Shown one piece after another: positions 8,197 through 36,319 of a DNA stretch of 64,000 nucleotides. The stretch lies in the NCBI GenBank assembly GCA_016278505.1, contig JADQBQ010000019.1, positions 5,098-69,097 on the forward strand, in the 5' to 3' direction. The translations under genes were made by a program, and so were the position numbers. How positions within the stretch are numbered: position 1 is the first letter of the stretch; each line of letters opens with the position of its first letter. The notes beneath the pieces are model-generated. The model saw nothing but the letters and a program-made list of their open reading frames with translations, was not told the origin of the DNA and did no database searches. The DNA comes from Clostridiales bacterium. GTDB taxonomy: Bacteria > Bacillota > Desulfotomaculia > Desulfotomaculales > VENG01.

Positions 8197-8412
8197 GACA
8201 AACCTGTCTTTTGCGCATAGCGAATGAATTGAATCGAGCCGTTGCCAGGCTTGGCGAAGTCGATAAGCGGAAGCGGGACCGAGCACAGGACGTGCGAGGC
8301 CGCCCCTTGAGCCATGGATGGCGATTGGGGCGGGAATCCCGCTGGAGCGTGAGACTGAGCCTTAGCCTGGCGCGGCGAGATGAATTGAATGAGCGGGCGC
8401 AAAAGGCAGGTT
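8197..8412 (+). ncRNA. unclassified structured repeat element, copy 1 (candidate ncRNA or RNA-structured repeat)
   Basis: About 90% identical by eye to 34482-34695. It has a 16-bp closing helix (8201-8216 with 8397-8412) and several internal helices. Differences between the copies are compensatory. It lies in non-coding DNA. Confidence 0.45.
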
Positions 8413-8436
8413 CAGCGCTAAGCTTAGCTTACAACC

Positions 8437-33963: not shown

Positions 33964-34455
33964 TTGACTCAAATATATGCACCGGATTTTGTCGGTAAGT
34001 CGGACCAGGCTGTTGTATTTCTGGTTTCTTCTTTAAATGAGGAATTGAAAAGTGTTATGGAGCGTGTTCACCGTGGAGAACAGGTTGTTTACCGTTTTGA
34101 GTGGAACCTTGCCAAAGACAGTGAACAAAAGGATATGATAGTATTTGCTTTGGAGTTTGCCGATGAGAATAATGTTTCTATTGGATTGGCACCACAATAT
34201 TGGGAATGTTTACCCTCAGTTATTTCCCTCGGCTTAATCGTTATTATGACCGACCCCGGCCTGATCAATGAAGAAAACCGGGCGGCGGTGGGTGAAGAGC
34301 CCAGGGCATTAGTCATCCACAGTGCTTTTAATGGCCTCGATGGATTAGCCGAACAGGCTAACCAGCGCTTACAGGCTGGAGAGAGAGGGAACTTAGACTT
34401 TTTACTCAGACTACTTTCCGAAGGGGCTGAGTCGGATGAAAAACCGCACCACTAA
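33964..34455 (+). CDS. hypothetical protein (163 aa)
   Basis: TTG start with GGAAGGAG upstream. No family recognised. Confidence 0.5.
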   Translation: MTQIYAPDFVGKSDQAVVFLVSSLNEELKSVMERVHRGEQVVYRFEWNLAKDSEQKDMIVFALEFADENNVSIGLAPQYWECLPSVISLGLIVIMTDPGLINEENRAAVGEEPRALVIHSAFNGLDGLAEQANQRLQAGERGNLDFLLRLLSEGAESDEKPHH

Positions 34456-34481
34456 ATAGTGTGTTACTAAGATAGAATACC

Positions 34482-34695
34482 GACAAACCTGTCTTTTGTG
34501 CAGAGCGAATGAATTGAATCGAGCAACTGCCAGGCTTAGCGAAGTCGATAAGCGGAAGCGGGACCGAGCACAGGACGTGCGAGGCTGCCCCTTGAGCCAG
34601 GACGGCGAATGGGGCAGGAATCCCGCTGGAGCGTGAGACTGAGCCTTAGCCTGGCCTGCGAGATGAAATGAATGAGCGGGCGCAAAAGACAGGTT
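34482..34695 (+). ncRNA. unclassified structured repeat element, copy 2
   Basis: Paralog of 8197-8412 with the same helices and compensatory changes. A TAGAAT box at 34473-34478 lies just upstream. Confidence 0.45.
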
Positions 34696-34722
34696 AGCTG
34701 CACAGTTATGGTTAATAACCGG

Positions 34723-34758
34723 GCGGCACCACTATAGATAGTGGTGCCGCTTTAGTTT
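34723..34758 (+). terminator. intrinsic terminator
   Basis: GCGGCACCAC-loop8-GTGGTGCCGC followed by TTTAGTTT. Confidence 0.6.
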
Positions 34759-34843
34759 GAGGTATTAATTTTCTCCAATGTGATAAATTATTAGTTGTTG
34801 CAAGTGACGGCATAATTCTAAGTATTAATTGGAGACGTAACAA

Positions 34844-35551
34844 ATGTTAGCTATTGTTTTGAGAACCATCCTAATCTACTTTATCATGCTGGCGGTAGTT
34901 CGGCTAATGGGAAAAAGGGAGATAGGCCAGTTATCACCCTTTGATTTTGTGGTGGCCATTATGATGGCTGAGTTGGCTGTATTACCCATGGAATCACCTG
35001 ATATTCCATTATGGCATGGCATAATACCTTTAGTGATATTAGTCTGCCTGGAAATAGGCATTTCCTATATGGCCTTACACAGTCATACAGTGCGGGGCTT
35101 TTTAGACGGAAAGCCACAAATTATCATTGAAAACGGCAAAATTCTCAAAAAGGAAATGCGAAAGAGCCGTTATAACCTTAATGATCTGATGGCCCAGTTA
35201 AGGGAAAAGGGGGTTCCTAATATAGAGGATGTGGAGTTTGGGATTTTGGAAACGTCGGGAAGGCTCAGCATTATTCCCAGATCCCAAAAACGTCCCATAA
35301 CGCCTGCGGATTTGGGTATCCGGACCAAATACGAAGGTATGCCTTTGGCCCTGGTTATGGACGGGGTGGTTATGCACGCTAATCTTGATATGTGCGGTCT
35401 GAATGAGAAATGGCTGTGTGAAAAGTTAAACGAAACCGGTATGGCCCTGGCCAATATTTTCCTGGCCATGCTGGATACCCAGGGGGAGCTTTACGTTGTA
35501 CCCAAAGATTATTTTAAAAATAATTTCCATGTACAGAAAAAGAAGGAATAA
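34844..35551 (+). CDS. DUF421 (YetF-like) membrane protein
   Basis: RLMGKREIGQLSPFDFVVAIMMAELA is the typical DUF421 N-terminus. Confidence 0.8.
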   Translation: MLAIVLRTILIYFIMLAVVRLMGKREIGQLSPFDFVVAIMMAELAVLPMESPDIPLWHGIIPLVILVCLEIGISYMALHSHTVRGFLDGKPQIIIENGKILKKEMRKSRYNLNDLMAQLREKGVPNIEDVEFGILETSGRLSIIPRSQKRPITPADLGIRTKYEGMPLALVMDGVVMHANLDMCGLNEKWLCEKLNETGMALANIFLAMLDTQGELYVVPKDYFKNNFHVQKKKE

Positions 35552-35608: not shown

Positions 35609-36319
35609 CTGGAAAGAAAGCATTTAACAATACTTTTAATAGTAGCTGCCCTGGTGATTCTGGGCGGCGGGTACAAGTTAGTTTCACTATCGCAGGCGGA
35701 AAACAATAAAGGTCAAGATGTATTAATAGATGCAAATTCCACAGAGCAGGAAATGAATTCCTTAGATTCAGCGGAAAATATTGTTAAAGAAGAACAAGCA
35801 GAGGCAGCAAAAGAAATATATGTCCATGTGGTAGGAGCAGTTGAAAGACCCGGTGTTTACAGGCTTCCTGAGGGGGCAAGGGTAGTGGATGCCATTAACA
35901 AGGCTGTTGCTGCCCCGGATGCCCGACTGGATCTTATCAATTTAGCGGCACCGCTGCCTGATGGCGTACAGGTAACGGTTTTGTCGAAAAAAGAGTATCA
36001 AGACTCACAGTCAAATTTAAACAGCAAAGAAATAGCGGCGCCGGTCCAGGGCTTCACCGGTACATCTTTTACTCAAAACAGTAGTGGTCTGGTTGGTGCC
36101 GTTGGAAATGGAAGCAGTACCGGTCAAGAGTTGATAAACATAAATACCGCCAGTCAGGGAGAACTAGAGACGCTTTCAGGCATTGGGCCTGCACTGGCCG
36201 GGAGAATTATTGACTACAGAAAGAATACAAGATTTTTATCCCCGGAAGATATTAGAAACGTTTCAGGTATCGGGGAAAAAAGATTTGATCAGATTAAGGA
36301 TAAGATTACAGTAAACTAA
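35609..36319 (+). CDS. comEA: competence protein ComEA (SLBB + helix-hairpin-helix)
   Basis: SLBB-like region (YVHVVGAVERPGVYRLPEG) and a C-terminal HhH (INTASQGELETLSGIGPALAGRIIDYR). The start is placed at the in-frame CTG at 35609 to include the TM anchor; the listed GTG is at 35654. Confidence 0.8.
   Translation: MERKHLTILLIVAALVILGGGYKLVSLSQAENNKGQDVLIDANSTEQEMNSLDSAENIVKEEQAEAAKEIYVHVVGAVERPGVYRLPEGARVVDAINKAVAAPDARLDLINLAAPLPDGVQVTVLSKKEYQDSQSNLNSKEIAAPVQGFTGTSFTQNSSGLVGAVGNGSSTGQELININTASQGELETLSGIGPALAGRIIDYRKNTRFLSPEDIRNVSGIGEKRFDQIKDKITVN

Follow-up and report, generated by a model that had tools for sequence, protein, structure and literature searches.

How did a structured, non-coding element come to lie between a gene and its terminator, and is it expressed on its own? 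The element in question is the second of two copies in the window, the whole 64,000-nt stretch of DNA analysed here, which comes from a MAG of 3.92 Mb in 56 contigs. A reading made from the sequence only had offered two answers, either insertion at the original terminator of the upstream gene with local duplication, or an independent sRNA transcribed from a TAGAAT promoter, and had suspected mobility. Insertion and mobility have held up; the promoter has not. The sequence features on which that reading was built (the TAGAAT box, the flank repeat, the terminator and its look-alike on the left) all lie where it had placed them, and are collected with the others in Table 1. Our main reading, to which we give a probability of roughly 0.7, is that copy 2 is a MITE-like non-autonomous transposon carrying a TwoAYGGAY-type rod, which would serve as a read-through 3'-UTR module and possibly bind CsrA, the last of these being putative.

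Table 1. Positions in the window of copy 2, its flanking hairpins and the neighbouring genes, with copy 1 for comparison
Feature	Position	Strand	Basis or remark
Copy 1 of the repeat family	8197..8416	+	sequence comparison
Upstream CDS, 163 aa	33964..34455	+	ORF list
Upstream decayed hairpin copy CCGCACCACTAAATAGTGTG, left target-site duplication	34444..34463	+	comparison with the empty site CCGCACCACTGAATTTCAGTGGTGCGG of same-genus genome G001
Flank repeat CACCACTA	34447-34454 and 34727-34734		read directly from the sequence
TAA stop of the 163-aa ORF	34453-34455	+	overlapped by CACCACTA at 34447-34454
Left arm / left TIR of copy 2	34466..34481	+	alignment of 26 plain copies with flanks; junction read-outs
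TAGAAT box	34473..34478	+	copy-specific, within the left arm
Rod-shaped fold of copy 2	34482..34698	+	MFE, covariation, G·U > A·C
Apical hairpin 1, GCAC-AGGAC-GUGC, GGA in loop	34568..34580	+	fold and consensus
Apical hairpin 2 domain, CUGCCCC-UUGAG-GCC-AGGAC-GGC-GAAUG-GGGGCAG	34585..34617	+	fold, consensus, alignment with the RF01731 match
GGA-containing loops of copy 2	34572-34576 and 34599-34603	+	sequence
Right arm with outer TIR	34699..34722	+	family alignment, junction read-outs
Downstream intact hairpin copy with T-rich tract, right target-site duplication	34723..34758	+	sequence, empty-site comparison
Arms of the downstream hairpin, GCGGCACCAC and GTGGTGCCGC	34723-34732 and 34741-34750		loop TATAGATA, then TTTAGTTTG
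YetF/DUF421 family gene, downstream	34844..35551	+	Pfam
ComEA-like gene after the YetF/DUF421 gene	35654-36319		Pfam

Filled and empty sites

The 163-aa upstream ORF falls into no Pfam family by Pfam search, and has an orthologue, 91% identical, in the same-genus genome G001. There the site is empty. The intergenic stretch between this gene and the YetF-family gene (96% identical) holds only the hairpin GATGAAAAACCGCACCACTGAATTTCAGTGGTGCGGTTTTGTATTTGAGG, a single one where the window has two, and the T-tract follows it directly. The same empty junction is also present in a contig of public run X10. In the window, an insert of ~255 bp is flanked by the hairpin on both sides, decayed upstream and intact downstream. 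The upstream copy, whose 5' arm contains the P-H-H-stop end of the ORF, has kept that arm, has a decayed 3' arm and is without a T-tract. The sequence-only reading had taken this left flank for a degenerate version of the terminator hairpin, and the fold energies agree: -4.2 kcal/mol for the upstream copy vs -13.2 for the downstream one. The downstream copy is intact, has gained a compensatory G...C addition, retains the T-tract and is the working terminator.

The locus does not stand alone. Four more loci are empty in G001, with flank alignments that overlap by 20-25 bp, one whole hairpin each, and two loci are filled in both the window genome and G001. The cleanest cases exclude the T-tract (or A-tract) from the duplication. 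The empty sites at five loci support mobility, and the filled/empty pairs bear out an insertion at the original terminator with local duplication. Among the 45 complete copies in the genome, locus-specific direct repeats occur at a fixed geometry relative to the rod (-30..-10 and +25..+50); 12 of the 45 flank pairs surpass the 99th percentile set by mismatched-flank controls, and 15 duplications can be seen at the canonical geometry. The target-site duplications range from 18 to 27 bp, the size of one whole hairpin, which is atypical for a MITE. A weak trend favours the downstream hairpin copy, which is more stable than the upstream one in 11 of 15 cases.

Could the CACCACTA flank repeat be coincidental, and the element an ancestral, vertically inherited 3'-UTR structure? 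An 8-mer repeat alone is weak evidence, but the comparison with empty sites that had been proposed as a check refutes this view: the sister genome is empty at precisely this site, with one hairpin, run X10 has the same junction, and the same flank geometry recurs at many loci. A coincidental repeat around a vertically inherited structure retains practically no credence. What is doubled at the flanks is the terminator hairpin, as a target-site duplication. Insertion at this hairpin of the 163-aa ORF took place after the split from the sister species and doubled the whole hairpin (~27 bp), excluding the T-tract. Mine-drainage metagenomes, which represent the source population, have contigs that run into the element from either flank and none with the empty junction, which makes the insertion look fixed there, bearing in mind that contigs show presence and not absence.

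How might insertion duplicate exactly one hairpin? If the strands were cut at both feet of the palindrome, or across an extruded cruciform, and the gaps then filled in, as has been described for IS1630, the duplication would be exactly as long as the hairpin. The order that has resulted is CDS, T-less decayed hairpin, element, and intact hairpin with T-tract.

A dispersed repeat family

The sequence-only reading spoke of two paralogs, and copy 2 (34482-34698) and copy 1 (8197-8416) are indeed 92.7% identical. The genome-wide count replaces this pair with a dispersed repeat family: its sequence is present at 60 places in the MAG and is complete from end to end at 45. Plain rods of ~215 nt account for 26 of the 45 complete copies. 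Some copies have an added domain of ~93 nt that is exclusive to members of the family (13/13), while others are interrupted by a ~97-nt repeat that forms a separate family, 30 of its 39 matches being standalone. Truncated copies and internally deleted mini forms are also present, and the mini forms have hairpin duplications of their own.

Alignment of the copies with their flanks showed that the mobile unit exceeds the rod. It includes a left arm (consensus AAGACTGATGAC; copy 2 reads ACTAAGATAGAATACC, with ~5 nt extra) and a right tail (consensus AGCTACACAGCTTTGTCAACAACCTGA; copy 2 reads ..GCACAGTTATGGTTAATAACCGG), and is bounded by imperfect terminal inverted repeats of ~19-20 nt, in which left AAGACTGATGACAAACCTGT matches the reverse complement of right CAGGTTGTTGACAAAGCTGT at 15 of 20 positions. 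The sole ORF in copy 2 is antisense and 55 aa long (34536-34703), which leaves the element no coding capacity. Terminal inverted repeats, a target-site duplication with five filled/empty pairs, dispersed copies and the lack of coding capacity together make the family MITE-like.

Nearly all complete copies (42/45) face the 3' end of a gene. Thirteen of the 45 lie between convergent gene pairs and 3 between divergent ones; where the neighbours are co-directional, 20 copies run sense and 9 antisense to them, a moderate bias only. Nine copies are antisense to both neighbour genes, and most lie 10-60 nt past a stop codon. Targeting of terminator hairpins explains why the rods lie between stop codons and terminators.

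Promoter or read-through?

If copy 2 were expressed independently, it would be an sRNA of ~270 nt that starts from the TAGAAT box as its -10 element and ends at the GCGGCACCAC hairpin. The box matches the -10 hexamer at 5/6 positions and lies 3 nt before G34482, the first nucleotide common to copy 1; a terminator stands downstream, and the fold in between is conserved. The box, however, falls within a copy-specific indel of the left arm, the ~5 nt that copy 2 has in excess of the consensus. The -35 region is weak, as had been noted from the start, its best match being 2/6; there is no TG extension, and a consensus promoter scan called no + strand promoter upstream of the rod. Nor does the family as a whole show any enrichment or a conserved sigma-70-type promoter, given that -10-like boxes (at least 5/6, within 45 nt upstream) precede 8 of 45 copies vs 12 of 45 control windows. 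The nine copies that are antisense to both neighbours, and the usual position shortly past a stop codon, also speak against it. A promoter of its own for copy 2 is not supported by these sequence features, and an independent sRNA seems very unlikely. Among the public runs that contain the window stretch there is no RNA run; all are DNA metagenomes.

The insertion model predicts expression of the rod by read-through. Because the upstream hairpin copy is without a T-tract, transcription of the upstream gene would be expected to pass it, continue through the rod and end at the downstream hairpin (34723-34758). The rod would thus be a 3'-UTR module of the upstream gene's transcript instead of the product of its own promoter.

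A rod-shaped RNA conserved across genera

At -108.9 kcal/mol (z = -9.3), the rod formed by the + strand of copy 2 is more stable than the fold of the - strand (-88.4 kcal/mol). Its long basal stem is interrupted by GA-rich internal loops and ends in a three-way junction from which two hairpins emerge, the second of which has its GGA loop atop a conserved UGAG/GAAU internal loop. Covariation was assessed in an alignment of 16 sequences from the window genus, an uncultured "Clostridiales" MAG, Desulfofundulus, Desulfovirgula and a fifth family. In the consensus structure, 98.1% of cells are paired and all 10 helices are supported. Compensatory changes on both sides affect 33 of 55 pairs, a figure that 0 of 500 shuffles reached (slid controls gave 2-7); the stem of hairpin 1, for instance, reads GCAC/GUGC, GGAC/GUCC, GGGC/GCCC or GAAC/GUUU. 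The rod fold is kept across at least 5 genera, among which the stems covary while loops and internal loops (GGA, UGAG/GAAU) remain constant. G·U pairs outnumber A·C mismatches by 27:10 among the genome's copies and by 25:7 among genera, an excess that marks the + strand as the folded strand. Both loops of copy 2 are 5-nt AGGAC, one nucleotide short of AYGGAY; AUGGAU or AUGGAC loops are found in hairpin 2 of copy 1 and in the Desulfofundulus and Desulfovirgula copies.

Relationship to TwoAYGGAY

Since 2010, TwoAYGGAY (Rfam RF01731; Weinberg et al. 2010, PMC2864571) has stood as an orphan among RNA families. According to a preprint of September 2026, the motif is multi-copy in Pseudomonas, has an elongated basal stem in Bacillota and behaves like a mobile element in its copy number (bioRxiv 10.64898/2026.09.22.753630). 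The window holds no match to RF01731 at the gathering threshold of 43 bits, and copy 2 gives none even at E<=10. On the genome, several copies of the repeat give full-length, sub-threshold matches of 18-28 bits, with 22.3 bits for copy 1 and 27.8 bits for the best. The sole match over the threshold (C56:92265-92422, 43.8 bits) lies outside the window and is single copy. The two-hairpin tip of this canonical RNA aligns with the tip of the repeat (GCGGGC-AGGAC-GCCCGC; CUGAGCC-AUGGAC-GGCGAAU), and this alignment, together with the AUGGAU loops in Desulfofundulus, is why the rod is filed as a TwoAYGGAY-type variant that falls short of the Rfam score.

The repeat and TwoAYGGAY share twin adjacent GGA-loop hairpins on an elongated basal stem, as well as a multi-copy, mobile-element-like occurrence in Clostridia-type Bacillota, and the Desulfofundulus relatives have AUGGAU loops exactly. 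The rod of the repeat differs by its additional GA-rich internal loops and outer TIRs. It also comes with filled and empty sites and hairpin-sized duplications, whereas the preprint leaves the mechanism of expansion open (bioRxiv 10.64898/2026.09.22.753630). The locus provides filled and empty sites at base resolution, and these show, for one Desulfotomaculia genus, that a TwoAYGGAY-type rod moves within a TIR-bounded unit, which lands at intrinsic terminators and doubles the hairpin in full. The family gains a concrete insertion mechanism, a hairpin-sized duplication with no identifiable IS30-type enzyme.

Candidate enzymes and known mobile elements

To our knowledge, hairpin-sized duplication is otherwise known only for IS1630. 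This IS30-family element of Mycoplasma fermentans (Calcutt et al. 1999, as related in PMC2853133 and PMC3317919) takes as its targets, according to the Fig. 1 legend of the former and to the latter, inverted repeats that vary in sequence and length, and duplicates them on insertion. The duplicated hairpin or inverted repeat measures 16-26 bp in IS1630 as those two sources relate it and 18-27 bp in the repeat. The same accounts describe IS1630 as autonomous, 1.4 kb in length and equipped with an IS30-type transposase, whereas the repeat is 255 bp long and non-coding. The IS30 family, considered as the mobiliser by analogy with IS1630, was rejected: NF033563 had 0 matches in G000, G001, G002, G011, G027 and G035, and IS30-family genes are absent from every element-bearing or element-rich genome examined. 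ISL3 was likewise rejected as a carrier: it is missing from G000, G001, G002, G011, G108 and the closed genome G107, nor does any ISL3 or IS30 locus have a copy of the repeat within 1.5 kb.

Is there an autonomous relative in the genome itself? A search of the MAG for a longer TIR-bounded element yielded chance matches only, which is weak evidence since draft MAGs lose IS copies. Its repeated segments of at least 0.5 kb are ordinary paralogues and one TnpB-like ORF, none linked to the element. A cluster of partial copies at C19:195-227 kb had been considered as a transposase-bearing island; it is an origin-proximal housekeeping region, with parB, ssb, dnaB, purA and murA-like ORFs. A replication-strand bias would be a sign of single-strand transposition, and the 28 of 45 copies on the G-rich strand are not a significant excess in the MAG.

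The Correia/NEMIS repeats of Neisseria, RUP/BOX of pneumococcus and ERIC resemble the family in being small, non-coding, TIR-bounded, multi-copy and intergenic, in being co-transcribed with their neighbours and in forming long hairpins. They differ in their short duplications (e.g. TA), in not being known to target or duplicate terminators, and in having folds without known homology to a free-standing RNA family.

Distribution and relatives with other ends

A covariance model of the upper rod detects the family, often in multiple copies, in 47 of the 162 genomes that represent the class, and in 25 of 66 genera. Of 30 Desulfofundulus loci sampled, 14 have the GGA core on the same basal chassis; otherwise the chassis bears a different hairpin of ~130 nt, or nothing, and the outer ends differ (GGCCGTGTAAAATTT ... 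CTTGACACGGAC). One clean 9-bp duplication was found there, and hairpin-sized duplications, looked for in Desulfofundulus and other genera, were not seen. Hairpin duplication is therefore shown for the window's genus only. Transposon ends of more than one kind seem to carry the RNA; if the ends do differ across genera, mobile elements would have captured it repeatedly.

Selfish element or RNA module?

Does the RNA matter at all? The family could be a purely selfish MITE with a functionless RNA, whose fold is needed by the transposition machinery in the form of cruciform or single-stranded DNA and whose placement in 3'-UTRs is a by-product of hairpin targeting. Copies are found in both orientations, many of them are truncated, internally deleted or split by another repeat, and the variable or missing apex on the Desulfofundulus frame indicates that the ends and the basal stem, not the GGA core, define the mobile unit. 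Yet the unpaired GGA and UGAG/GAAU sequences are kept over at least 5 genera while the stems around them covary, the apical module has a homologue in the canonical, single-copy TwoAYGGAY RNA of the same genome, and genomes with the element tend to encode CsrA as well. The preponderance of G·U over A·C marks one folded strand, which argues against a constraint on double-stranded or cruciform DNA, and is compatible with a single-stranded DNA intermediate of the + strand. A selfish element with a functionless RNA is thus unlikely, if still deserving serious weight, and the MITE-like transposon with a read-through RNA module is preferred.

What might the module do in the preferred reading? Binding of Csr/Rsm proteins has been proposed for AYGGAY loops, a proposal repeated in the preprint (bioRxiv 10.64898/2026.09.22.753630). 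The window genome has a csrA gene (C55:8085-8261), and the rod presents two GGA sequences in hairpin loops, the arrangement of CsrA-binding RNAs. Within the class, CsrA is encoded by 41 of the 47 genomes that have the element and by 49 of the 115 that lack it (odds ratio 9.2, p = 1e-7, with no correction for phylogeny or genome completeness). The two GGA-loop hairpins may bind the genome's own CsrA, in which case each insertion would add a pair of CsrA sites to a host mRNA; this is the least certain step of the proposed mechanism.

A more ambitious and rather doubtful extension makes the rod a portable 3'-UTR cassette that spreads by terminator-hairpin duplication, its ~45 copies forming a putative distributed CsrA sponge. 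Each insertion would disarm the old terminator by leaving a T-less copy, add a twin-GGA rod and restore termination with the second copy. If this were true, the dose of the sponge would follow host-gene expression, and Bacillota would have an RNA route of CsrA control. Bacillus CsrA is known to be antagonised by the protein FliW, not by RNA, and FliW is the only antagonist known in Bacillota. Compared with CsrA-sequestering RNAs of the CsrB/RsmZ type, the repeat likewise has GGA in hairpin loops in a genome that encodes CsrA. It differs in having two sites per unit only, for which CsrA binding is predicted, and in being scattered over ~45 mRNA 3' ends and intergenic sites instead of being gathered in one sRNA. 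The optimum CANGGANG is matched by the GGA motifs in relatives (GCAUGGAUGC).

Relatives and subfamilies of the rod element

The tip of the rod element, the MITE-like repeat of the window's genome, is homologous to the two-hairpin tip of a canonical TwoAYGGAY RNA encoded by the same genome on contig C56, about 23 kb past the window's end. The stem of this RNA is lengthened by its flanks (GGCCGTTGGATTCCCGC / GCGGGAACCCAACGGGCC).

Features outside the window (G000, the window's own genome; G001, a same-genus genome with empty sites; L numbers, single loci)
Feature	Location	Strand	Remark
Canonical TwoAYGGAY RNA	G000:C56:92265-92422	-	single copy; RF01731 match, 43.8 bits
~93-nt extra domain of the rod element	G000:C52:6197-6291, C56:82496-82594		11 further copies
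Truncated rod-element copies	G000:C13:51200, C19:213654, C27:173174, C35:13307		shared breakpoint; several more in G001
Basal chassis without two-GGA core	L089, L090, L091, L101; L102, L104, L106, L098		first four in G107/G108 (Desulfofundulus)
Otherwise empty site L051	G001:C2:209330-209700		orthologous to G000:C19:177917
~97-nt small repeat	G000:C19:54082-54179, C19:171682-171778, C47:10949-11053		~30 standalone sites; all outside the window
Repeated segment	G000:C12:6850-8428, C22:3299-4877		94% identical

A long (~300-nt) subfamily is set apart by the ~93-nt extra domain (GACGGCAATGGCAT...ATGCCATTGCGAAAACAGCTGGTCTTAA...TAATTTG), which is found only within rod-element copies, where it adjoins the second GGA-loop apical hairpin (query 126/136 along the search sequence); a diverged form of the domain is located at query 66/75. 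The truncated copies listed above break off at query 51, after GCAGCTGCCA, with unrelated sequence beyond. Several copies are interrupted by the ~97-nt repeat, in each case at one and the same position (query 176/177). This second family, made up of a terminator-like hairpin (AAAAAAAGCGCGC...GCGCGCTTTTTT) plus CTTGCCATATATATGGCAAG, has 39 matches in the window's genome, 30 of them standalone.

The basal chassis common to the rod element (AAAATGGCCGCCGTTTTGCACGAAGCGA ... GGAGCGAGCGCGTGCAAACGGCAGGC) also occurs without the two-GGA core, which is either replaced by another hairpin of ~130 nt (CCCAGCACTCAC...GTGAGTGCTGGG) or absent together with the whole apical module, as in mini forms.

Ends, duplications and chromosomal distribution

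The outer inverted repeats of Desulfofundulus copies (GGCCGTGTAAAATTT ... CTTGACACGGAC at L070, also L068 and L102) differ from those of the window's genus. At L070 (G107:C1, ~3.11 Mb) both ends carry GAGGGCGTA, a perfect 9-bp direct repeat; the direct repeats at L068 and L102 are degenerate. The 9-bp repeat is a conventional short duplication, whereas insertions in the window's genus duplicate one whole terminator hairpin. L051 retains a 14-nt piece of the rod element's left end (AACCTGTCTTTTGC) immediately 5' of its single hairpin, a remnant that may be the footprint of a lost copy.

Left-end matches mapped by position and orientation along the closed 3.6-Mb genome G107 (C1) show a strong bias in both: five forward matches lie at 0.52-0.76 Mb, nearly all of 17 reverse matches fall within 2.1-3.5 Mb, and the interval 0.76-2.1 Mb holds one match only. 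The window's genome shows no such bias.

Other repeated DNA and abundance

The C12/C22 segment encodes what, on its N-terminal sequence only, is a TnpB/OrfB_IS605-like protein; no link between this segment and the rod element was seen in the window's genome. The organism itself is very abundant in mine-drainage metagenomes (runs X1, X2, X5 and X6): at window 34300-34900, word depth in the flanks reaches ~960, summed depth is 40-190x higher over the rod element than over its flanks, and assemblies are interrupted within the element.
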